Source of the DNA: Nitrospinota bacterium
Lineage (GTDB): Bacteria > UBA8248
NCBI GenBank assembly: GCA_046581755.1
Contig: JAYGFR010000031.1
Coordinates: forward strand, 5,671 to 69,670
Length of the DNA: 64,000 nucleotides
Direction of reading: 5' to 3'
Shown: positions 10,750 to 61,729 of the stretch, one piece after another
Layout: every line of letters begins with the position of its first letter
How positions within the stretch are numbered: the stretch's first letter is position 1
The notes under the pieces: generated by a model
Told to the model about the DNA's origin: nothing
Seen by the model: only the letters and a program-made list of their open reading frames with translations
Databases searched by the model: none
Position numbers and translations under genes: made by a program

Positions 10750-11022
10750 ATGAACGATCAAACCGACTTCCGGAAATTCTACCGCGACGCCCACGCCACC
10801 GCGCTTCTGACCGACCGCGAGAAAAAACTCATCGGCATCGCGGTCGCCATCGTCCGAAACTGCCAACCCTGAGTGGACCACCGCCTGGCGGCCGCCGGGA
10901 AAGCCGATATCCCAGAAGAGGTGCTGGACGCCACGTTCGATCTCACCACCGCGGTGATGGCCGGAATCGGACAGAGCATGAACCGGCGCTACAAGGATTC
11001 CCTGAAACCGAAAGAGGGGTAG
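10750..11022 (+). CDS. AhpD-like (carboxymuconolactone-decarboxylase family) selenoprotein, 90 aa, with selenocysteine at codon 41 (TGA 10870-10872)
   Basis: Not present in the ORF track. An ATG at 10750 has an AAGGAGA RBS 6 nt upstream. The hand translation is MNDQTDFRKFYRDAHATALLTDREKKLIGIAVAIVRNCQP-U-VDHRLAAAGKADIPEEVLDATFDLTTAVMAGIGQSMNRRYKDSLKPKEG. The AhpD/CMD catalytic motif C-x-x-C-x-x-x-H is present with its second Cys replaced by TGA. It ends at TAG 11020-11022. Confidence 0.7.
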
Positions 11023-12498: not shown

Positions 12499-13815
12499 CT
12501 AATCCCCTCGGTCGAAGCGGACGATCCCGCCCGAAACCGTCGTCCGGACAATCGCCCCGGGACGGAAAATATCGGCGAGCGCCACCTCCGCGGCGCCGGG
12601 CGGGGGCGCGATGACGGCGAAATCCGCCACCCCGCCGGAGGTCAGCCGGCCCACCCCCTCGTCCGTGAACCCCAGGGCCCCGGCGCCGTTCACCGTGCAG
12701 ATTTCCAGGAGCGCATCCGCCGTCAGGCCCGGGTCCGCCTCCCAGAGCGCCGCCGCCTCATCGAGCAACGAGAGCGAAGGGCTGCTCGCCCGGCTGTCCG
12801 TTCCGAGGCAGAGCCGGAGACCGGCACGCCGCATCCCGGCGGCATCGGCGAAAGGATGCCCGAAATAGGCGGTCGACCGGGGACACAGGCAAACCACCGC
12901 CCCGGCGCGCGTGAGAAGCTCCCAATCCTCCTCGTCCGTCTGGTTGCAGTGGACCGCCAGATCGATGTCCTCCAGGACCCCCGCATCGGCCAGGTAGCGC
13001 ACGGGCGAGCAGCCCGGCGGATCGAAGCCGTTGACCGCGCTCTCCAACGCTTTGTGCATTTCGGCGAACGCGCCGCCACCGTCCTTGAGGAACCGCACCT
13101 CTTCGGGGCTTTCGGCCAGATGGGTGGCCGAGGGCCAGGTCCGACCGCGCGCCTCCTCGAGCGCCAAGCGGTAGAGCGGAATCGATGTCGTGTAGGGCGC
13201 ATGGGGACTGACCCCATCCCTGAGAAATTCCGCCCCGCCACCGGTCTCGCCACCAGTCTCGAACACCCCATCCGCGGAGGGAAGCCTTTGGCGGACAATC
13301 GAATCCGCCTCGGCAGGGGCCAGCCCCAGCACCTCGCTGAACACCACCCCGCGCATCTCCATGAACGATAGGATCACCCGGCTGTGGCCCGAGGCCGAAA
13401 TATCTCCCACACAGGTGACGCCCGAGCCAAACGATGCGATCGCGCCGAGCCGGGAGGAGGAGAGAAAAAGAGGGGGCGGCCAGCCGCGCGTCTCGCGGAC
13501 CAGGGCCACGATCCACTCGGCCATCGGCGCGCGCGTGGCCTCGAATCCGCTCAGCTCGAGGTGGGTGTGGGCGTTCACGAGACCTGGGACGAGAACCGCC
13601 CTTCCGAAATTCCGCTCGGGAACCAGCGGCCCCTTGGGGCGGACCTCCGCCTCCGGGCCCACCGCTTCGATGCGGCCGCCCCGGGTGAGGACCGCTCCGC
13701 CGCGAATGGGCGGGCTCCCGGCCGGGCACACGAGATCGGCCCGCCAGAGGTTTTGTCTTCGAGAGGGGGTCTGCTCCGCGCGGTTTCCGTTTTCCGGGCC
13801 GCTAGCTGAGCTCAT
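12499..13815 (-). CDS. Amidohydrolase-family deaminase (candidate aminodeoxyfutalosine deaminase / MTA-SAH deaminase-like)
   Basis: 438 aa with metal-binding HxH (…VNAHTHLELS…) and a downstream HCNQ…D motif. It is co-oriented with the adjacent MqnC/MqnE radical-SAM gene. Confidence 0.65.
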   Translation of the reverse strand: MSSASGPENGNRAEQTPSRRQNLWRADLVCPAGSPPIRGGAVLTRGGRIEAVGPEAEVRPKGPLVPERNFGRAVLVPGLVNAHTHLELSGFEATRAPMAEWIVALVRETRGWPPPLFLSSSRLGAIASFGSGVTCVGDISASGHSRVILSFMEMRGVVFSEVLGLAPAEADSIVRQRLPSADGVFETGGETGGGAEFLRDGVSPHAPYTTSIPLYRLALEEARGRTWPSATHLAESPEEVRFLKDGGGAFAEMHKALESAVNGFDPPGCSPVRYLADAGVLEDIDLAVHCNQTDEEDWELLTRAGAVVCLCPRSTAYFGHPFADAAGMRRAGLRLCLGTDSRASSPSLSLLDEAAALWEADPGLTADALLEICTVNGAGALGFTDEGVGRLTSGGVADFAVIAPPPGAAEVALADIFRPGAIVRTTVSGGIVRFDRGD

Positions 13816-14047
13816 GATATTTGCGCGGCCTCAGGAAACCCGTGCCCGGACCCTTCCCGAACCGGTAGGCCGCGCGCCGGAGACTGGCCAGGTCATGTTC
13901 CCAGCGCCAATCGTTGACCTGGAGCCTTGTTCTCAGGCGGCCCGACTCCCACGCACACATGGCGGCGTAGGCGATCACGAGAGCAACGCCCCAACCGGGG
14001 AGGATCAATAAGAGGATTAAACCGAGAACGACGGACAAGGAAGCCAT
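13802..14047 (-). CDS. Small hydrophobic protein (hypothetical)
   Basis: 81-aa ORF that exactly fills the gap between the radical-SAM gene and the amidohydrolase. It has one or two TM helices. Confidence 0.3.
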   Translation of the reverse strand: MASLSVVLGLILLLILPGWGVALVIAYAAMCAWESGRLRTRLQVNDWRWEHDLASLRRAAYRFGKGPGTGFLRPRKYHELS

Positions 14048-14049
14048 GA

Positions 14050-15231
14050 TCAGATCAACTCATAGAAAAAATTTCGCCGCCGGAGGGTGAAGCCCGCGGC
14101 CCCGGCCATGCGGTGAAGATCGGCTTCGTTCAGGCAATGGACCGTACCCGCCGAGCTTACCACGTTCTCCTCCAACATGGTCGAGCCCATGTCGTTCGCC
14201 CCGAAGCGCAGCGAAAGCTCGCCCACCTTCATCCCCTGGGTCACCCAGGAGGATTGGATGTTCTCGAAGTTGTCCAGGTAGAGGCGGCTGATGGCCAGGG
14301 TGCGCAGATACTCGCTGCTGCCCACCGTCTGCGCCTTGAGCGCCGCCGATCCGTCGTTCTGGAACGTCCAGCAGATAAACGCCGTGAACCCGCCGGTCTC
14401 GTCCTGGAGCTCCCGGAGGCGGTCCAGGTGTTCGATCCGCTCGGCGGGGGTTTCGACGTGGCCGAACATCATCGTCGCCGACGAGCGAAGGCCCAGCCGG
14501 TGCGCCTGGCGCATTACGTCGAGCCAGCCATCCGAATCCACCTTGAGGCGCGCGATTTGGCGCCGGACCCGGTCCACCAGAATCTCGCCGCCCCCGCCCG
14601 GTATCGAATCGAGGCCCGCCTCCCGGAGGCGGACGATCACCCGCTCGTAGGGAATGTCCTCGAGCTTGGAGATATGGTGAATCTCGGGCGGGCTCAGCGC
14701 GTGGAGATGGAGATCCGGATACTCCATCTTCAGCCAGCGGAACAGATCTTCGTACCATTCGATCCGAAGGTCCGGGTGATGCCCTCCCTGGAGGAGGATC
14801 TGCTTCCCGCCAGCGGCATAGAGCTCGTCCAGCTTTTGGCGAATCTCCTCCTTGGTGCGGATGTAGGCCTCGGGGTGATCCCCGGGCGGGCGGTAGAAGG
14901 CGCAGAAGGTGCAATAGACATCGCAGACATTCGTGTAGTTAATGTTGCGGTCGATGCAGTAGGTGGCAAAACCTTCGGGGTGCTTTCGGGCGCGGACCTC
15001 ATCCGCCGCCGCGCCCAGGGCGGGCAGATCGTCTCCCTCGAGCAGGGCCAGGCCCTCCTCCATCGAGAGCCGCTCGCCCCCGGCTGCTTTTTCCAGCGCC
15101 TCGTAAAACGCCGATGTCGCCGTCGTCATGATTTCCTCGGATCCGGTCGCCCGGGGTGATATGGAGCGGGGAGTATACGGGGGTTTCCCCATCCGGGCGA
15201 GGGTGGGCATCCTCCCGCCAATTGTTGACAA
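14050..15231 (-). CDS. Radical-SAM menaquinone (futalosine pathway) enzyme, MqnC/MqnE family
   Basis: CxxxCxFCAF radical-SAM motif (…NYTNVCDVYCTFCAFYR…). The likely true start is the internal Met at about 15129 (MTTATSAFYEAL…). It is a paralog of the gene at 19946..21094. Confidence 0.8.
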   Translation of the reverse strand: MSTIGGRMPTLARMGKPPYTPRSISPRATGSEEIMTTATSAFYEALEKAAGGERLSMEEGLALLEGDDLPALGAAADEVRARKHPEGFATYCIDRNINYTNVCDVYCTFCAFYRPPGDHPEAYIRTKEEIRQKLDELYAAGGKQILLQGGHHPDLRIEWYEDLFRWLKMEYPDLHLHALSPPEIHHISKLEDIPYERVIVRLREAGLDSIPGGGGEILVDRVRRQIARLKVDSDGWLDVMRQAHRLGLRSSATMMFGHVETPAERIEHLDRLRELQDETGGFTAFICWTFQNDGSAALKAQTVGSSEYLRTLAISRLYLDNFENIQSSWVTQGMKVGELSLRFGANDMGSTMLEENVVSSAGTVHCLNEADLHRMAGAAGFTLRRRNFFYELI

Positions 15232-15255
15232 GTCCAGATATTGGGACTATATAAT
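15225..15255 (+). promoter_or_regulatory. Near-consensus sigma70-type promoter (TTGACA-17 nt-TATATAAT)
   Basis: TTGACA at 15225-15230 and TATATAAT at 15248-15255. No ORF follows for about 360 nt. Confidence 0.35.
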
Positions 15256-15618
15256 CTTAATATAAAAGCGCTACCCCCAGCCGGGGTCACCCGGCCCCTC
15301 CTCGAATCGGACCATCTGGTACACGCGCCGGTGCCCCTACACCGCCCTGCCCCGGCGGGAAATTCATTCATCCCATCTCCCCCGCCGGGGTGTTGCCCGC
15401 CGGGGTCTTGGAAAAGCATCCTCCATTCTTCTTCCCCTTGGCCATTTATTTCCATACCCGCACTCAAGCTCCCACCACCACACTCCCCTTGCACCACTCC
15501 TCCCAGCCACCACACCTCCCCGAACGCACCGTCCCGCAGCCGGCAGGTTCAAATTTCCCGGTTTTCGCCCCCTTGACGCACATAAAAATTATATATATAT
15601 TGTATATACTTTTTATTT

Positions 15619-15876
15619 ATGGGGATACTTGCCGTGGCCACCCAGATTGGAAAGTGGGGAAACAGCTTGGCCGTCAGGATTCCATCCGCCCTGGCGGAGC
15701 AATTCGGCTTGAAGGAAGGCTCTCCGGTGGAGATCATTACCGACGACCGGGGGCTCCTGGTCCGGAAGCCCGGCTACCGGCTGGAGGATCTCCTCGCGGG
15801 CATCACCCCCGAAAACCTGCCCCAAGAGCCTTCTCCCGGCCCGGCCGTGGGAGGTACGGACGGGGGAGGCGGATGA
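15619..15876 (+). CDS. mazE: AbrB/MazE/SpoVT-family antitoxin
   Basis: 85 aa with a KWGNSLAVRIP swapped-hairpin motif. An AT-rich promoter-like stretch lies immediately upstream. Confidence 0.7.
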   Translation: MGILAVATQIGKWGNSLAVRIPSALAEQFGLKEGSPVEIITDDRGLLVRKPGYRLEDLLAGITPENLPQEPSPGPAVGGTDGGGG

Positions 15877-16199
15877 GATCCGGTCTCGTCCCGGATCGCG
15901 GCGACATCCTCTTCCTGGATGGGGGCGCCGGACAGCGCGGCCGGGCCCCGGCTCTCATCGTCTCGCCCCGGGCCTACAACCGCGCCACCGGCCTTGCGCT
16001 CGCCTGTCCCATTATTCAAACCCCCGGGGGCTATCCGTTCGAGGTGCTCCTCCCCGGCAACCTGGGCATCGCCGGAGCGGTCCTCGCCGACCGGCCCCAA
16101 AGCCTCGACTGGCGCTCCCGCCGCCCCGAATTCGCCGCCCACGCCCCCAAGGCCGTCCTCGAGGAAATCGCCGCGAAGATAGCCATCTTGCTTGAGTGA
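15873..16199 (+). CDS. mazF: MazF/PemK-family endoribonuclease toxin
   Basis: The start ATG at 15873 forms an ATGA overlap with the antitoxin stop. 108 aa (RGDILFLDGGAGQRGRAPALIVS…). Confidence 0.7.
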   Translation: MRSGLVPDRGDILFLDGGAGQRGRAPALIVSPRAYNRATGLALACPIIQTPGGYPFEVLLPGNLGIAGAVLADRPQSLDWRSRRPEFAAHAPKAVLEEIAAKIAILLE

Positions 16200-16309
16200 G
16201 GGGGGGGGGATACCCATCAGATTTCATCAATATGATCACACACGGATATCCATTGCACCCGGATGGCGGGACGCCGGGGGTCGTGCGGAAGTATCGGGCC
16301 GGGCCGGCG

Positions 16310-16852
16310 CTAGATACTAATCACCTTCCCGTTGAGCTTGATCTCGCTTTTGAGCGGGACGGCGGCCTGGACCATGGCTTCGGCGAAACACCCCTGCTTG
16401 GCGTTTTTGATGAGGGCGAGGACGCGCTCCTCGGGGGCGTCGGATTCGACGGTGAAGTACGTCCGGGTTTCGAGGCATTCGGCTTTCACGGTGCCCCTCA
16501 GGACGGAGCCGGAGAGAAGGTAGTCCATCTCGACGCGGACCTTGCTGCTCTTGTATTCGATTTTCATCATGCTCGCGTACCGCGAGAGTTGGGTGAGCAG
16601 TCAGAAGCCGACTCCCATGCAGATGTAGGTGAGGGGCTGGGGGTGCTCGTCCTTTCCGCCCAGATCGGCGGGCTCGTCGCACATGACCTCGAAGTGGCGG
16701 TGTCGGCCGACCTTGAGCTGGGAGCCCGGGGGCGCCTCGGTGTCGGCGAACTGCTTGACCAGAAGGCCCTGCCGGGGGAGCTCGGGTTTGTCGATCACCC
16801 GCTCGCCGGGGGCGGTGCTCATGTCGCGGTGGAGGAGGGGCTTATCGTTCAT
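16310..16852 (-). CDS. OsmC/Ohr-like peroxiredoxin-family selenoprotein, copy 1 (Sec encoded by TGA at 16603-16601)
   Basis: Track ORFs 16601..16945 and 16310..16570 are in the same frame and separated only by TGA. The joined protein of about 180 aa reads …PQPLTYICMGVGF-U-LLTQLSRYASMMKIEYK…NAKQGCFAEAM…. Sec sits at the first catalytic Cys of OsmC, and the second Cys is retained. The start was set at MNDKPLL (16852). Confidence 0.7.
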
Positions 16853-16889
16853 GGGACGCCTCTTCAAGAAAAAGGAATTGGAGCTGGGC

Positions 16890-18311
16890 TCATCCGACCG
16901 GCGGCCGAAGCGCCCGGATTTCCGGGGTCGCACTCTCGTAGGCATGGGCGCACCGGAGCGCGGCGGCCTCGCGCCAGGGGGCGGTGACGATGTCGAGCGA
17001 AAGGGGCAGGCCGATTTTGTTCAGCCCCATGGGCACGACCAGCGAGGGGCAGCCGGTCATGTTGTGGCAGGAGAGAAACGGGCGGTGGAGGTAGCTGAAG
17101 GGAAGGTCTCGCCCGTTCATCTCGGCCATCAGGGTTTCGATGGGCGGGGCGGCGCAGGGGACCGAGGGCATGATCATGGCGTCGGCATCTTTTAAAAACG
17201 CGGCCGCCTCGCGCCGGAGCAGGACCCGCTCTCGCATGGCGTGGACATAATCGTCCAGCGGAATCTGGGCCGACCACTCGTAGCGCTCGCGCACGTCGTC
17301 TCCATAGCCATCGGGGTTTTCCTCGTAATACGGCCGGTGAAACGCGGCGAACTCGGGCCCGGCGATCTTGGGAAACAGCTCCCCGAAGCGGCCGGCGTTC
17401 GGGAAGGAGACCTCCTCGATATTCGCGCCCAGATCCCGGAACACAATCGCCGCACGGGCGAAGGCCTCTAAAATCTCGGAGTCCACCTCGGAGTTAGAGT
17501 AAAAATCAGGACAAATAAAAATCCGGCTGCCCGCGACGCCCTTGTCGATCCCCTCGGTGTAATCGGGCACGGAAACGTCCCGCGTTTTCGAATCCAGCGG
17601 ATCGAAACCGGCCATGACGTTCAGGAACATCGCCGCGTCTTTTGCGCTGCGCGTCATCGGGCCGCAATGGTCCAGGCTCAGGACGTTCGGGCAGATCCCC
17701 CGGATGCTCACCCGCCCGTGGGTGGGCTTGAGGCCGACGATGCCGCAAAAGGCCGCCGGGGTGCGCACCGATCCGCCCGTGTCGGTGCCCAGCGCGGCGG
17801 GGATCATGCCCGCCGAGACCGCCGCCGCCGAGCCGCCGCTCGAGCCGCCGACGATACGATCCGGGTTCCAGGGATTGTGCGAGGTGCCCCAGTGGGGGTT
17901 GATGGTGGTCGATGCGGCGGCGAACTCGTGGGTATGGGTCTTCCCGATCAGGATGGCCCCGGCCCGCTTGAGGCGGGCGATGACTTCGGCGTCCTCTGCG
18001 GGCACGTTGTCCCGGTGGAACGATGATCCGTTCGTGGTGCGGATTCCGGCGGTGTCGATGATGTCCTTCGCACCGTAGGGGATGCCGTGCAGGGGGCCCC
18101 GATAGCGGCCCGCGGCGATTTCGTCTCCGGCCCGCCGGGCCTCCTCCATCGCCAGCTCGCCCGTGACGGTCAAAAAGCCCAGGTACTCTTCGTTCAGCGC
18201 CTCGATGCGCCCCAGGAGGGCCTCGACGATTTCGGCCGGGGAGAGAGAGCGGTTTTTAATTTTCCCGGAGAGCTCGAATACGCTCAAATCGCAAAGGGCA
18301 TCATCCACCAC
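16890..18311 (-). CDS. Amidase-signature family amidase (GatA-like)
   Basis: GGSSGGS amidase signature. A probable GTG start at about 18311 is preceded by GGGAGGA. It lies directly upstream of, and is co-oriented with, OsmC-like selenoprotein copy 1. Confidence 0.8.
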   Translation of the reverse strand: MVDDALCDLSVFELSGKIKNRSLSPAEIVEALLGRIEALNEEYLGFLTVTGELAMEEARRAGDEIAAGRYRGPLHGIPYGAKDIIDTAGIRTTNGSSFHRDNVPAEDAEVIARLKRAGAILIGKTHTHEFAAASTTINPHWGTSHNPWNPDRIVGGSSGGSAAAVSAGMIPAALGTDTGGSVRTPAAFCGIVGLKPTHGRVSIRGICPNVLSLDHCGPMTRSAKDAAMFLNVMAGFDPLDSKTRDVSVPDYTEGIDKGVAGSRIFICPDFYSNSEVDSEILEAFARAAIVFRDLGANIEEVSFPNAGRFGELFPKIAGPEFAAFHRPYYEENPDGYGDDVRERYEWSAQIPLDDYVHAMRERVLLRREAAAFLKDADAMIMPSVPCAAPPIETLMAEMNGRDLPFSYLHRPFLSCHNMTGCPSLVVPMGLNKIGLPLSLDIVTAPWREAAALRCAHAYESATPEIRALRPPVG

Positions 18312-18340
18312 GGCAGCCACTCCTCCCAGATTTTGGCTGG

Positions 18341-19078
18341 CTATCTTCCCGGCGCATGAAGAATGCGCGTTTTTTTCTTCAGCGTCCTGAGCATCAGGTA
18401 GACGATCAGGCTGAGGGAGAAAATAACAGCCCAGCCCGTATCGATAACGAATTCTTTTTTCACGGTCCAATCGCCGATGGCCTGGAACAGGGTCATCACC
18501 GCGATCACGCAGAAAAACCCCGAATACTCTCTCCGCAGGACCGTCCTCGCCGAGAAAGGAAACGAGGGTTTCTCCCAGTTCGAAAATCTGGGGAAAATAA
18601 CCGGTGTCCGCTCCGTCCAGCGGAGATATTCATCCCCGAATTTTTCGCGCAAAAACTCTTCCTCCCGCAAGATGATCCGCTCGTAGTAAATCCAGAAAAA
18701 CATCGCGAGCAACACCAACGTGAGGGGCGATTGCAAGAAGAGAAGCAGGCCCGAGACCATAACGAAGTTTCCCAGATAAAGCGGGTTCCGGCAGAGGGAG
18801 TACATGCCGGTGGTGTTGAGCTGGCTGGCCTTTTGATTTTTCGTGATTCGGCCCGAGGTTCCGGCCGGGGCGTGTCCGACGCTGAGCGCCCGGATGGCCA
18901 GGCCGGACAGGGAAACCGCCAGGCAGACGATTTCGAGAACGCCGGCCCAGAACTCCGAGTTCATCGGAAAGCGGTAATGGCGGAACTCGTAGAGGACCAC
19001 CGGAACGATCGCCAGGGGGAGGTAGCCCCTCCAGCGGAAAAGCCAGTCGCCTTGTCTGACCATATCCTCTTTCAGCAT
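18341..19078 (-). CDS. Isoprenylcysteine-carboxyl-methyltransferase / phospholipid-methyltransferase-family membrane protein
   Basis: CRNPLYLG motif. The start was re-set to Met64 (ATG 19078-19076). Confidence 0.65.
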   Translation of the reverse strand: MLKEDMVRQGDWLFRWRGYLPLAIVPVVLYEFRHYRFPMNSEFWAGVLEIVCLAVSLSGLAIRALSVGHAPAGTSGRITKNQKASQLNTTGMYSLCRNPLYLGNFVMVSGLLLFLQSPLTLVLLAMFFWIYYERIILREEEFLREKFGDEYLRWTERTPVIFPRFSNWEKPSFPFSARTVLRREYSGFFCVIAVMTLFQAIGDWTVKKEFVIDTGWAVIFSLSLIVYLMLRTLKKKTRILHAPGR

Positions 19079-19157
19079 GGCACCACGGCTTTCGAGTTCA
19101 AGAGACATTCGGCGTCCAACGAAAAATTTCCATAACCCGCGCGGCCCGGCGCGCCGC

Positions 19158-19964
19158 CTACTCTTCCATTCTGGCCCGGTCCGCCTCCCACCCCCCGGGG
19201 GCGAGGCCGTCCTCGGCGAGATATGCGTAGTAGCGCCGGAGGCCCTCTTCCTCATCCGCCCCCACATCGTAGCGGATACAGTTCGTCAGGTAATCCCTCG
19301 CCGTGGCCTCGTCGATATAGGGCAGCTCCCGGGCGGCCCGGGCGATGATCTCATCCAGGCGGCGGACGCCCTCTTCCTTCGCCTCCCGGAGCAGGCGGCA
19401 GGCCCCGGCGTCTCCGGCCCTCGGCCGGAACAACCAGACCGCATAGAGAAACGGCAGGCCGGTGAACTCCGTCCACACCCCGCCCAGGTCGATGAGGTCG
19501 AGGCCGCCCGCCTCCTCGCGCAGGGCGTTGTCGCCGATGAGGAGGAAGGCATCGAGAGATTTGTCTTCGCGCGGCGGGCGCCGGGGATCGATGGACACGA
19601 ATTCGGGCGCGGCGCCCCATTTCCGGGAGATGATGACACGCGCCATGTTGGCGGCCGAAAGGGACCAGGCGTCCAGGCCGACGCGCCGGAGCTCCCCGGG
19701 CGGCTTCCGGCAGAACAGGCGGATGCTCTTCACCCGCCCCCGGCTGGCAATCCCCACGCCGGGCACATAGCGGGCCCCGGGCAGATGAAACATCGCGAAG
19801 GAGGAAACCAGCGCGGCATCCACCCCGCCCTCCTCGAGCAGGGGCAACAGCCGCGCGGGGGGCTCGGCGCGGAGTTCCACCTCCGCCCGGTTTTCGAGGG
19901 CGAGAGTGAGAGGAACCGCGTTGAGGAAGGGAACCGTACCGAGCTTCAGGCCTTGACCGCCCAT
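19158..19964 (-). CDS. mqnA: Chorismate dehydratase MqnA (futalosine pathway)
   Basis: 268 aa with an N-terminal LGTVPFLNAVPL motif of the MqnA/MqnD family. Confidence 0.65.
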   Translation of the reverse strand: MGGQGLKLGTVPFLNAVPLTLALENRAEVELRAEPPARLLPLLEEGGVDAALVSSFAMFHLPGARYVPGVGIASRGRVKSIRLFCRKPPGELRRVGLDAWSLSAANMARVIISRKWGAAPEFVSIDPRRPPREDKSLDAFLLIGDNALREEAGGLDLIDLGGVWTEFTGLPFLYAVWLFRPRAGDAGACRLLREAKEEGVRRLDEIIARAARELPYIDEATARDYLTNCIRYDVGADEEEGLRRYYAYLAEDGLAPGGWEADRARMEE

Positions 19965-21094
19965 GTATCTCCCAGGCGCTTCACCTCGCGGTAGAGCGTG
20001 TCGCGCTCGACGGGCCTGCGGCCCACCTCTTCGATGATGCGGCGAATCTCGTCCACGCCGATTTCCTGCGGCGTCTGGGCGCCGGCCATGTGATAGATCT
20101 TCTCCTGGACGACGGTTCCGTCGATATCGTCCACCCCGAAGCGCTGGCTGATCTGCGCGATGGGCACACCGACCATGATCCAGTAGGCCTTGATGTGATC
20201 GATGTTGTCGAGAAGGAGCCGGGCGGCGGCGTAGTTGCGGATATCGAGCAGCCCGCCCGGGCCGGGCACGTCCGCCATTTGCGAATTATCCGGGTGAAAG
20301 GCGAGCGGGATGAACGTCGTGAAGCCGCCCGTCTCGTCCTGAAGCTCGCGGAGCCGCAGCATGTGGTCCACCCGGTCCTCGTCGGTTTCGACGTGGCCGT
20401 AGAGCATGGTGCAGGAGCTCCGGAGGCCCATGCCGTGGGCGATGCGGTGGACATCGAGCCAATCCTCGGCGGATTGTTTTCCCTTGCAGATGACAGAGCG
20501 CGTGGGCTCGGCGAAAATCTCCGCCCCACCACCCGTGAGCGAGCCCAGCCCCGCCCGCACCAGCGCCCCCAGCGTCTCCTCGACGCTCATCTTCGCGACA
20601 TGGTCCGCCAGCCAGCGGATCTCGGTGGAGGTGAAGATTTTGAGGTGGAGATGGGGGTGAATCTCCTTGATGCCGTGGATCATCTCCAGGTAGTAATCGA
20701 AGGGAAGGTCCGGGTGCAACCCGCCCACCATGTGAAACTCGGTGCGCCCCTTGCCGAGGCCCTCGGCCATCTTGAATATTTCTTCGAGCGAGTAGGCGTA
20801 GGCGCCCTCCTGGCCCTCTTTTCTGGCGAACGCGCAGAACTTGCACGCCTTCCAGAGAACGCAGACGTTCGAGTAATTGATGTGGCTGTTGACGTTGTAG
20901 TAGGTGGCGTCCCCGTGCATGCGCTCTCGCACGAGGTTCGCCATGTGGCCGAGGCCGGCGATGTCATCCGTCCGGTAGAGGCGCACCCCCTCCTCGAACG
21001 AGAGCCGCTCGCCCGCCTCCACCTTCTCGAAAATATCCGCCAACGGCCCGCGCCGGAGCCGCCGGGCCATGAATGTTTCAGTCATCGAACCCAC
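19946..21094 (-). CDS. Radical-SAM MqnE/MqnC-family enzyme (aminofutalosine synthase or cyclic dehypoxanthinyl-futalosine synthase)
   Basis: 382 aa with …NYSNVCVLWKACKFCAF…. It overlaps the mqnA start by 19 nt. Confidence 0.8.
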   Translation of the reverse strand: MGSMTETFMARRLRRGPLADIFEKVEAGERLSFEEGVRLYRTDDIAGLGHMANLVRERMHGDATYYNVNSHINYSNVCVLWKACKFCAFARKEGQEGAYAYSLEEIFKMAEGLGKGRTEFHMVGGLHPDLPFDYYLEMIHGIKEIHPHLHLKIFTSTEIRWLADHVAKMSVEETLGALVRAGLGSLTGGGAEIFAEPTRSVICKGKQSAEDWLDVHRIAHGMGLRSSCTMLYGHVETDEDRVDHMLRLRELQDETGGFTTFIPLAFHPDNSQMADVPGPGGLLDIRNYAAARLLLDNIDHIKAYWIMVGVPIAQISQRFGVDDIDGTVVQEKIYHMAGAQTPQEIGVDEIRRIIEEVGRRPVERDTLYREVKRLGDTWAVKA

Positions 21095-27229: not shown

Positions 27230-28093
27230 CTATTTCGCCGCGGCCCTGGCTTCTTCCTCTTCCTTCATCCGTTTCAGGAACACGGGCGCGGGAGTGTCCG
27301 GGCGCCACTTGGTCTGATCCGGAGGCTCGGGCCACTCATAGGGAAGATGGACATACGTATTCGGCCCCTTCGCCGATTCGAGCAAATCGGCCATGCCGCC
27401 GCAGATTCTCCGCTGCCCCTCGCGGTCGCCCACATCTCCAATCTGGCGGCCGAAGGGATACTGGATAAACGCGGCGCGCGGGACGGCGACCTTCTCCGTC
27501 ATCCCGGGCACGTTGCTGAGAGAAACCGTGGCGATTCCCGCCCTTTCGATTTCGCGCTGAAGCAGTCCGCCGGACCGGATGCAAAGCGGTCAGACGGGAA
27601 TGAGAAAAACCGCATCCACCTTCTCGGACTTCATTTTTTCGACCATCAGCGGCGCCGTGCGCTTGATCAGCGGGTTGAAGTTGGGGATGTAGCCCATGAT
27701 GGAATAGAGCGTATCGGCGAGGCTCCCGATTTTTCCCTCGCTCTCGTAGTCGTTGAAAATGTCCACCGGCCAGGCCACGTTCCGGTCCTTGGCCATAAAG
27801 CTCGTGTCGATGTGCAGATGGCTGTACTCCACATCGTCCTGGCCCGCCGTTCGCGGAATCTCTCGGTGGCTGGGGTCGCCCCAGGTCGGCTCGGCCCGCT
27901 CACGATCATAGTCGAACGACACATCCCCTTTCGCAAAGATTCCGGCCGTGGAAACCAGCGTCACGCGGCATTCCGAAAGCGGCTTGGAGAGCGGCGTCCA
28001 GGGCGTTTCCGCCGGGTCGTTGGCCCGCATTTGCTCGATACGATCCTTTTGCCCGGGGTGAAAAAACAAACTGTCGACTTTCGTGATCGCCAT
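27230..28093 (-). CDS. Glycine/sarcosine/betaine/D-proline-reductase protein-B (GrdB/PrdB) family selenoprotein, with Sec at TGA 27592-27590
   Basis: Track ORFs 27590..28177 and 27230..27511 are in the same frame. Hand translation across the gap gives …EKVDAVFLIPV-U-PLC-IRSGGLLQREIERAGIATVSLSNV…. This contains the U-x-x-C motif followed by the RSxxxxQRxIExAGI segment, as in PrdB (…TAGUGTCHRSAVIVQRAIEEAGIPT…). The start is at Met29 (ATG 28093, RBS AAGGAGA). 287 aa. Confidence 0.75.
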
Positions 28094-56163: not shown

Positions 56164-56718
56164 TTATCCTGAAATCCCTTCGAGCTCCAAGGGCTCGCCG
56201 TTCAGTTCGATTTCACTTTTGAGCGGGACGGATGACTGGATCATCCGCTCGGCGTAGCAACCCTGCTTGGCGTTCCGGATAAGCAGAGCGATCTTCTCGG
56301 GCGGGGCACCGCTTTCCACCCGGAAAATCGTTCGCGTCTCTGTGCACCCGGACTCGACCGTCCCCTTCAATACCGAACCACGCAAAAAATAGTCCATCTC
56401 CACCCGACAACTCGCCTTGGTGATCTCGATTTTCATCATGTGCGCGTACCGCGCCAGCTGGGTGAGCAGTCAGAAACCCACCCCCATGCAGATATAGGTG
56501 AGAGGCTGGGGATAGCAATCCTGCCCCCCGATTCGGGGCGGCTCATCGCAAAACACCTCGAACTTCTCCTTCCGCCCCACCTTGATCTGGCCGTCGCCGC
56601 TCCACTCGGTCTCCGCCCATTGGTAGGAAACCGTCCCTTGGGGCGGAAGCTCGGGCTTGTCGATGAGCCGCTCCCCGAGAACGGCACTGAGCTCTGTCGT
56701 CACTATCGGTTTTTCCAT
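56164..56718 (-). CDS. OsmC/Ohr-like selenoprotein, copy 2 (Sec encoded by TGA at 56472-56470)
   Basis: Track ORFs 56470..56754 and 56164..56439 are in the same frame and separated by TGA. The joined sequence is …PQPLTYICMGVGF-U-LLTQLARYAHMMKIEITK…NAKQGCYAERM…. This is the same architecture and TGA position as copy 1, with about 70 % identity. The start was set at MEKPIV (56718). Confidence 0.7.
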
Positions 56719-60120: not shown

Positions 60121-60321
60121 GTGTCCATGTCAGAAGAAGAAATATCGCGCCGCTCCGAAGAAATTTTCGGAACACCCATCAGTGGAGAGCACCTTTCTGG
60201 ACTCGCCTCTCTGTTGGCTTCGCTCGAAGGGACCCATCTCGGGGCTGTCGAGGCGATAGCCCCGGAATCGGAGCCGATGGGCCACCGGGCCATATTAAGG
60301 GAGTCCCGCCATGGTGGATGA
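60121..60321 (+). CDS. Small acidic protein, possibly a GatC/AtzG-like amidase partner
   Basis: 66-aa ORF overlapping the amidase start by 11 nt. The spacing of E/L residues and a terminal …EP motif resemble GatC. Confidence 0.3.
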   Translation: MSMSEEEISRRSEEIFGTPISGEHLSGLASLLASLEGTHLGAVEAIAPESEPMGHRAILRESRHGG

Positions 60322-61729
60322 CATCGCCCGCCTTGCCGCCTCGGAAATCGCCGGGCGGGTCCTGGCCGGAGAGCTTTTGGCCGCCGATGTGGCGGAGGCG
60401 TTCCTCCTCCGAGCCGAGAAGATCGGCCCGGCCCTCAACACCTGGATCACCCTCGACCGGGAAGGCGCCCTGAATCAGGCCCGGATTATCGACGAGGCCA
60501 TGGCGGAAGGCAAAGACCCCGGACCGCTAGCCGGCGTTCCGGTGGGCCTGAAAGATATCATCGACGTGGCCGGACTCCGGACGACTGCCGGAAGCCTCAT
60601 CCTCAAAGACCAGGTGGCGGCCGGGGACGCACCGCTTACCCGAAAAATCCGGAAAGCGGGCGCGGTCATTCTGGGAAAACTCAACATGCACGAGTTCGCC
60701 TTCGGCCCCTCCGGCCACAACCCTCACTACGGAGACCAGAAGAATCCCTGGGACACGAAAAGGGTCACCGGCGGCTCCAGCGGGGGTTCGGGAAACGCGG
60801 CCGCCACGGGCCAAGCCTCCATCACCATCGGCTCGGACACCGGGGGCTCCATCCGGATTCCCACCTCTCTTTGCGGGGTCATCGGGCACAAGCCCACGTT
60901 CGGGTTGGTCACCAAGGCGGGCTGCGTATCGCTTTCATGGTCACTGGATTCATTCGGCCCCATGGCGACCTCCGCCCGGGACTGCGCCCTGATGATGTCC
61001 ACCATCGCCGGGCCCGACCCGGAAGATCCCAGCTCCCTTCAGGTGGAGGCGCCCGATTTCATCGGCGCCCTGGACAAACCGCTTGCCGGGCTCCGGATCG
61101 GACACGCCCGAAACTACTACGCCGATCAGTCCGACCCCGCCGTATGCGAAGCTATCGAGGAGGTGGACCGGGCGCTGTCCGATGCGGGCGCCCAGGTCGT
61201 CGAGGTGAACATTCCCGGCTTGAAGACGGCTTACGGCGCAGCCACGAATTTTATGATGCCCGAGGCCGCGGCCTATCACGAGAAAAACATTCGGGAGAGG
61301 CCGGACGATTACGACCCCAAGGTGCTTGAGCGCCTGAAAATCGGTTTTTTCATTCCCGCGACATCCTACATTCAGGCCCAGCGCTTCCGCTCGCAGTGGA
61401 CCGCGCAGGTGCTCAAGGAGGTTTTCGGGAAGGTGGACCTGGTCCTTGCGGCGGCAACGCCCATGCCCGCTCCGTTGCGCTCGGCCAAAACGGTCACGGT
61501 GGCCGGAAAAGAATACGACGCGCGGGGCCACCTGATCGCCTTGACCCGGCATATCAATTTCCTGGGCTTTCCCTCGACCGGGTTTCCGGCCGGTATCAGC
61601 GACGAGGGCCTTCCGTTGGGAGCCCAGCTCATCGGACCGCCGCTTCACGATCACCGCACCATCGCGGCAGTCCATCAACTGGGAAAAGCGGGAGCCGTCC
61701 GCTTTCAGTTCGCGCCGTTCGAGGGATAG
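60311..61729 (+). CDS. Amidase-signature family amidase
   Basis: GGSSGGS motif and a Ser-cisSer-Lys triad region. It is a paralog of the gene at 16890..18311. Confidence 0.85.
   Translation: MVDDIARLAASEIAGRVLAGELLAADVAEAFLLRAEKIGPALNTWITLDREGALNQARIIDEAMAEGKDPGPLAGVPVGLKDIIDVAGLRTTAGSLILKDQVAAGDAPLTRKIRKAGAVILGKLNMHEFAFGPSGHNPHYGDQKNPWDTKRVTGGSSGGSGNAAATGQASITIGSDTGGSIRIPTSLCGVIGHKPTFGLVTKAGCVSLSWSLDSFGPMATSARDCALMMSTIAGPDPEDPSSLQVEAPDFIGALDKPLAGLRIGHARNYYADQSDPAVCEAIEEVDRALSDAGAQVVEVNIPGLKTAYGAATNFMMPEAAAYHEKNIRERPDDYDPKVLERLKIGFFIPATSYIQAQRFRSQWTAQVLKEVFGKVDLVLAAATPMPAPLRSAKTVTVAGKEYDARGHLIALTRHINFLGFPSTGFPAGISDEGLPLGAQLIGPPLHDHRTIAAVHQLGKAGAVRFQFAPFEG

Follow-up and report, generated by a model that had tools for sequence, protein, structure and literature searches.

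The window analysed here is a stretch of 64,000 nucleotides and contains, on its minus strand, an OsmC-like gene of 180 codons with a putative selenocysteine (Sec) at codon 84 (copy 1; 16310..16852, with matches to NF041052 and Pfam OsmC). The gene starts at the ATG 16852-16850 and ends with the TAG 16312-16310. An in-frame TGA occurs once, at 16603-16601 (16601..16603, minus strand), and constitutes the candidate Sec codon U84 within the motif U-L-L-T, a position that is occupied by Cys in homologs and at which the TGA recurs in metagenomes. With GC3 values of 0.92 before the TGA and 0.86 after it, both halves look coding and in the same frame. Downstream of the TGA, on the same strand, lies the candidate SECIS hairpin (16572..16586), which was supported by RNAalifold and by covariation. 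It consists of a 6-bp stem, CUCGCG/CGCGAG (CTCGCG at 16586-16581, CGCGAG at 16577-16572), and a GUA apical loop (GTA at 16580-16578). The first paired base is the 15th nucleotide 3' of the UGA, and the loop G lies 20 nt after it. The second, resolving-type conserved Cys, Cys155, is encoded by a TGT at 16388..16390 (minus strand) and is invariant in the homolog alignment (A2). As genomic context, an amidase-signature amidase gene (16890..18311, minus strand; Pfam Amidase, 352 bits) is located upstream, and copy 1 is possibly co-transcribed with it. The layout of the locus had been described correctly by the original prediction: the two minus-strand open reading frames (ORFs) that share a frame and are split by the TGA only proved to be one frame of 180 codons, the perfect 6-bp hairpin at 16572-16586, 15 nt 3' of the UGA, matched the sequence in all coordinates, the second Cys is kept within NAKQGCFAEAM (TGT 16390-16388, Cys155), and the co-oriented amidase, with its TGA stop at 16892-16890, lies 37 nt upstream.

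A second OsmC-like selenoprotein gene (copy 2; 56164..56718, minus strand) comprises 184 codons and is 61% identical to copy 1. Alignment of the two paralogs, which had been proposed as a check, placed the TGA of copy 2 (56472-56470, i.e., 56470..56472 on the minus strand) at the codon that aligns with the TGA of copy 1. The hairpin of copy 2 (56442..56454, minus strand; -7.6 kcal/mol) has a 5-bp stem, GCGCG/CGCGC, and again a GUA loop, and one pair differs between the copies, being U-A in copy 1 and G-C in copy 2. In near-identical metagenome contigs the gene of copy 2 is split by gene callers into pieces of 99 aa and 91 aa. Such contigs from ENA and Logan (L123-L128), originating from several independent assemblies, are ~98-100% identical to the neighborhood of copy 2, and the selenoprotein gene was called as 99-aa and 91-aa ORFs in every one.

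For profile searches, U was replaced by C in both copies. The NCBIfam model NF041052, "OsmC-related (seleno)protein", was matched with 162.2 bits by copy 1 and 168.3 bits by copy 2 (cutoff 95), spanning model positions 13-144 of 144, and Pfam OsmC (PF02566) was matched with 45.2 and 47.2 bits, respectively (cutoff 27.5). A search among 5.8 billion proteins resulted in 14 full-length homologs, 13 of which were aligned. At the TGA position, 12 of these 13 have a Cys (GVGF-C-LLTQ), and Cys155 is invariant among them; in Sec-form sequences Cys155 is retained in 98 of 103. The same search also recovered protein fragments: P0015 and P0017 cover the N-terminal part and stop after ...GF, and P0016 and P0018 cover the C-terminal part. 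Such fragments are the usual signature of selenoprotein genes cut by gene callers. In sequence alignments to solved structures (PDB 3cje, E = 9e-8, and 1vla; 2opl was also included), position 84 aligned to the first conserved Cys and C155 to the second. A structure model (AF2/AlphaFold; pLDDT 86) was made for the closest Cys homolog, P0001, and it matched OsmC/Ohr folds only: 2opl, 3cje, 2onf, 1lql, 1vla, 1ml8/YhfA and many Ohr entries. The spacing between U84 and C155 is 71 residues; a redox Cys pair ~60 residues apart is a hallmark of Ohr/OsmC proteins (PMC5384416).

When folded, the hairpins of copy 1 and copy 2 had energies of -7.8 kcal/mol (z = -2.45) and -7.6 kcal/mol (z = -1.49), respectively, and neither was significant in a 42-nt context. 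The constraints of the bacterial SECIS (bSECIS) model have been published (PMC13188914), and the hairpin falls within all of those quoted there: the apical loop measures 3 nt (allowed 3-9 nt), the upper stem 5-6 bp (allowed 4-16 bp), the required G in the first two loop positions is present (G, then U), the UGA-to-loop spacing is 20 nt (allowed 16-37 nt), and the minimum free energies (MFE) of -7.8 and -7.6 kcal/mol lie below the limit of -7.5 kcal/mol. A longer SECIS, in which a lower stem pairs +3..+8 with +53..+58 as in the MFE fold of copy 1, was rejected, as it was conserved neither in copy 2 nor in the family alignment. A search of the whole window against Rfam gave no hits, and Rfam appears to be without a model able to recognize a bacterial SECIS of this kind.

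By itself the hairpin offers weak evidence; it is the comparison across sequences that decides. When 114 distinct Sec-form sequences were aligned without gaps (A3), RNAalifold predicted exactly the 6-bp hairpin and nothing else. Standard pairs made up 96.3% of the pair cells of this alignment, whereas shuffling gave 73% and the slid controls 16-67%. Compensatory changes were present in four of the six pairs, for example G-C and C-G (68:45) at one pair and C-G, A-U, G-C and U-A at another. Double changes amounted to 120 cells versus 36.6 +/- 4.2 after shuffling, and the observed value was reached in none of 500 shuffles. The two loop-closing pairs (C-G and G-C) are invariant and thus without covariation evidence; they could be unpaired in the SelB-bound form. 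At synonymous positions the codons that overlap the hairpin did not vary: the Arg codon is CGG in all 114 Sec forms, its third base being the loop G, and the Tyr/Phe codon ends in C in all 114 (TAC for Tyr). The seven Cys-form genes can form only 2-4 of the 6 pairs, use the codons CGC, CGT and TAT at these positions, and have lost the hairpin. The absence of the hairpin from the Cys forms shows that the RNA constraint is specific to genes that need UGA decoding. The hairpin is an RNA element under purifying and compensatory selection in Sec forms only, and the recurrence of the TGA together with the hairpin and its covariation in 114 genes is far beyond chance.

These comparisons bore out the remaining parts of the original prediction. 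The assignment to OsmC-like selenoproteins agrees with the NF041052 scores, which were well above the cutoff for both copies. The TGA had been equated with the first conserved Cys of the OsmC/Ohr fold, a proposal that homologs placing it away from the catalytic Cys would have contradicted; the homolog alignment (Cys in 12 of 13) and the alignments to 3cje and 1vla agree in putting it at the first conserved Cys. The hairpin, finally, had been named a candidate SECIS, and this is corroborated by its covariation over 114 sequences and its absence in seven Cys forms.

The surroundings of copy 1 (12499..21094) contain genes of the futalosine pathway, namely a MqnA-like gene and two MqnC/E-like radical SAM genes, as well as an amidohydrolase gene and a homolog of LmtA/ICMT-like (LmtA, lipid A) methyltransferases. 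The futalosine pathway is an alternative menaquinone pathway. In a syntenic metagenome contig (L035) the genes follow one another as MqnC/E, OsmC(Sec), amidase, methyltransferase, MqnA, MqnC/E, with protein identities of 64-90%, and the gene order and amidase pairing of copy 1 are not kept in contig L104 or in most other loci. An ORF with a PemK/MazF-type toxin domain in its C-terminal 100 residues (~15390..16199, plus strand) is convergent to copy 1 and lies just downstream of it. In L035 only ~175 nt separate the OsmC gene from the MqnC/E gene, and the toxin-antitoxin module near copy 1 therefore looks like an insertion. Copy 2 is followed after 20 nt by a gene for an MBL-fold hydrolase and then by one for a PAC2 protein, and a divergent TypA/BipA gene is located upstream; this arrangement recurs in ~99% identical contigs. 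An amidase-signature amidase is found near each OsmC-like copy (16890..18311, minus strand, and 60311..61729, plus strand). The two amidases share ~35% identity, as estimated from cross-matches on L035, and only the first is adjacent to and co-oriented with its OsmC-like gene. Clustering of the neighboring genes of 119 loci gave no universally conserved neighbor, and the clusters ranked highest consisted of shadow ORFs antisense to the OsmC gene. A promoter and terminator scan around copy 1 resulted in nothing above the shuffled expectation.

The distribution of the TGA was investigated by scanning metagenome contigs with the degenerate DNA pattern G-F-TGA-L-L-T-Q-x-x-R, which matched at least 120 stretches. 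Among the matches listed, 117 of 120 had the same gene with the same in-frame TGA, the protein was conserved on both sides of the TGA, and the median pairwise identity of the TGA-form genes was 44%. Judging by their names, the TGA-form contigs appear to come from many different metagenome samples; the genes on L035 and L104 are both 86% identical to copy 1. A scan of genome contigs with a Cys-containing peptide pattern yielded two loci, both of the Cys form. In one gene (L134:1160-1204; NCBI GCA_017884105.1, protein P0003) the Sec/Cys position is occupied by TTA (Leu), yet the hairpin is perfect, with 6 of 6 pairs and a GUA loop, which is most simply explained if a Sec-form gene has recently mutated from TGA to TTA or was assembled wrongly.

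An in-frame TGA could be present if UGA were reassigned throughout the genome, to Trp as in code 4 or to Gly as in code 25, or if the TGA were a sequencing or assembly error for TGC or TGT. Its bare presence, and nothing further, speaks for these readings, to which we give practically no credence. As TGA is the ordinary stop of 16 of the 41 Pfam-supported genes in the window, the genetic code is not reassigned, and among these 41 genes the TGA is internal in the two OsmC-like genes only. The same TGA in 117 contigs from many independent metagenomes (among the matches listed) and in two paralogs excludes a sequencing error or a recent pseudogene. That the TGA is a genuine stop, so that the locus would be a pseudogene or two small genes of 83 aa and 86 aa as annotated by automated callers, we consider very unlikely. 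The near-identical metagenome copies are indeed split by callers into 99-aa and 91-aa ORFs, the fragments P0015-P0018 are present in protein databases, and no Sec machinery is encoded within the 64-kb window. However, a stop codon would have to fall exactly on the catalytic Cys codon in two paralogs and, among the matches listed, in 117 contigs; the 11 codons from the TGA to the next ATG are highly conserved and form part of a long, high-confidence helix in the model of the homolog P0001; the GC3 values (0.92 and 0.86) look like those of coding sequence on either side of the TGA; and the hairpin with its compensatory changes is specific to Sec forms. In our assessment both loci are very probably OsmC-related selenoprotein genes that belong to the COG1765/YhfA-type group of the Ohr/OsmC superfamily and in which the UGA is read as Sec by means of the hairpin.

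According to this selenoprotein reading, UGA codon 84 would be decoded as selenocysteine, with the hairpin acting as a bacterial SECIS from within the coding sequence. At the UGA it would recruit SelB, loaded with Sec-tRNA(Sec), to the paused ribosome, a mode of delivery that we propose by analogy with the established bacterial pathway; actual Sec insertion in this organism is likewise presumed. Neither tRNA-Sec nor selA, selB or selD was found within the 64-kb window (ARAGORN reported no tRNA-Sec there), and the Sec machinery of the organism is therefore assumed. Two further candidate selenoprotein genes in the window provide indirect support for the use of Sec by this organism, and the source organism is probably Sec-rich. 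One is a CMD/AhpD-like gene (~10750..11022, plus strand) with a TGA at 10870-10872 in the motif RNCQP-U-VDH (CxxU). Its GC3 is 0.80 both before and after the TGA, and it matched Pfam CMD with 27.7 bits (cutoff 23) and, weakly, the NCBIfam AhpD-domain selenoprotein models. The other encodes a PrdB/GrdB-like selenoprotein B homolog (~28093..27233, minus strand) with a TGA at 27592-27590 in the motif IPV-U-PLC (UxxC), and immediately follows a zinc-ADH gene that is in the same frame. It scored 120 bits with NCBIfam PrdB, below the cutoff of 300, and 64.5 with TIGR01918 (cutoff 65.45), and also matched Pfam GRDB.

In the encoded protein, Sec84 would lie at the N-terminal end of a long helix, in the first, peroxidatic-type Cys position, and would serve as the redox nucleophile. 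Following the Ohr/OsmC mechanism (PMC5384416), it would be oxidised by a hydroperoxide or another oxidant to a selenenic acid, which would form a selenenylsulfide with Cys155, and this would be recycled by a thiol or lipoyl reductant; both oxidant and reductant are presumed from that mechanism. We hold with high confidence that the protein contains Sec and that this Sec is redox-active, and regard it as an evenly balanced matter whether it would, by analogy, specifically be a hydroperoxide reductase. The catalytic Glu of Ohr/OsmC proteins, which is located ~10 residues before the peroxidatic Cys, is replaced: in a pairwise sequence alignment the Glu of P-L-E-L-V in 1vla corresponds to Thr75 of P-L-T-Y-I. 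The homolog alignment contained no conserved acidic residue in residues 69-83. The catalytic Arg of OsmC is located in the loop that precedes helix 1, that of Ohr within its first beta-hairpin. In sequence alignments the D59-D68 loop contained no invariant Arg, and the invariant R91 and R130 lie elsewhere. With the Glu absent and no conserved Arg in the loop, the protein belongs to the third Ohr/OsmC group (COG1765/YhfA), and because the canonical OsmC/Ohr Glu is absent, a peroxidase activity can only be inferred. This third group is poorly characterised, with conflicting reports of activity (PMC5384416). In the literature no biochemical characterisation of any member of the OsmC-like selenoprotein family was found.

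It is conceivable, and we entertain it tentatively, that the protein is a selenoprotein but no hydroperoxide reductase, and that Sec84 and Cys155 take part in another thiol/selenol redox or transfer reaction, such as disulfide or persulfide reduction or the detoxification of electrophiles. The missing Glu, the lack of a conserved Arg in the sequence alignments and the poor characterisation of the third group would all fit such a role. It might be linked to the hydrolases next to the two genes, the amidase that precedes copy 1 and the MBL-fold hydrolase that follows copy 2. The syntenic L035 has the same amidase-OsmC pair, an amidase lies ~2 kb from the gene in another contig (L093), L123-L126 retain the order OsmC-MBL-PAC2, and a thioredoxin-TPR gene is found downstream in 18 loci of one clade. 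However, no neighbor is common to the whole family, the synteny is conserved in close relatives only, and within the superfamily the peroxidase mechanism is marked by just this conserved two-Cys geometry (PMC5384416). A bolder proposal, which we think improbable, is that the Sec clade, which by sequence is without the Glu/Arg pair, comprises no peroxidases and would catalyze a selenol-dependent reaction of its own that practically requires Sec. The idea of such a requirement draws on the frequency of the Sec forms, which in metagenomes seem to be no rarer than the Cys forms. The question of biochemical function is general to the third Ohr/OsmC group lacking the Glu and extends beyond this locus.

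The OsmC-like selenoproteins (COG1765), which have a UxxT motif and a predicted SECIS, were described as a family in 2005 from the Sargasso Sea metagenome by Zhang, Fomenko & Gladyshev (PMC1088965), were found again in the GOS data (PMC2398784), and are listed in reviews from 2022 and 2026. The motif U-L-L-T of both copies fits UxxT and is replaced by C-L-L-T in 12 of the 13 full-length homologs. Judged by their sequences, the two genes agree with this family in every criterion and are thus already known in kind. They add two further members from one genome and confirm a family described 20 years ago. Their value is chiefly one of annotation, as standard gene callers split the gene into two short hypothetical ORFs; in addition, they provide a clean covariation dataset for the minimal SECIS of the family, with 114 sequences and a hairpin that is lost in Cys forms.

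Compared with the family of Zhang and co-workers (NF041052), the HMM match, the UxxT motif and the position of Sec at the first conserved Cys are all the same, as is the SECIS immediately after the UGA, whose small apical loop contains a G. By HMM, motif and SECIS description there is no substantive difference. With the OsmC/Ohr thiol peroxidases (T. maritima OsmC, PDB 1vla; X. fastidiosa Ohr) the proteins share the fold and the two conserved redox residues, the first of which is the nucleophile. In contrast to these peroxidases, the peroxidatic Cys is replaced by the putative Sec, and an N-terminal extension of ~45 residues is present. The closest solved relatives are two OsmC-like proteins from structural genomics, 3cje (Jannaschia Jann_2040), which is the closest by sequence (E = 9e-8), and 2opl (Geobacter GSU2788), which is the closest by fold (E = 6.5e-9). 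The motifs G-C-x-x-T-Q and K-x-G-C-F are common to 3cje and the window proteins, whereas both solved proteins are Cys forms with only ~20% identity to the window proteins, and their function is likewise uncharacterised. When set against the bacterial SECIS consensus (the bSECISearch model and the SECIS of E. coli fdhF), the position within the ORF is common to both, whereas the hairpin described here stands at the minimal end, since its loop is a tri-loop and its energy is right at the limit. In the SECIS of E. coli fdhF, G23/U24 are spaced from the UGA almost as the loop G-U is here. A bulged U is not evident, and the heptamer CGGUACG is invariant across the family. This invariant CGGUACG tri-loop hairpin may represent an unusually minimal, family-specific class of SECIS that is present across very divergent bacteria.
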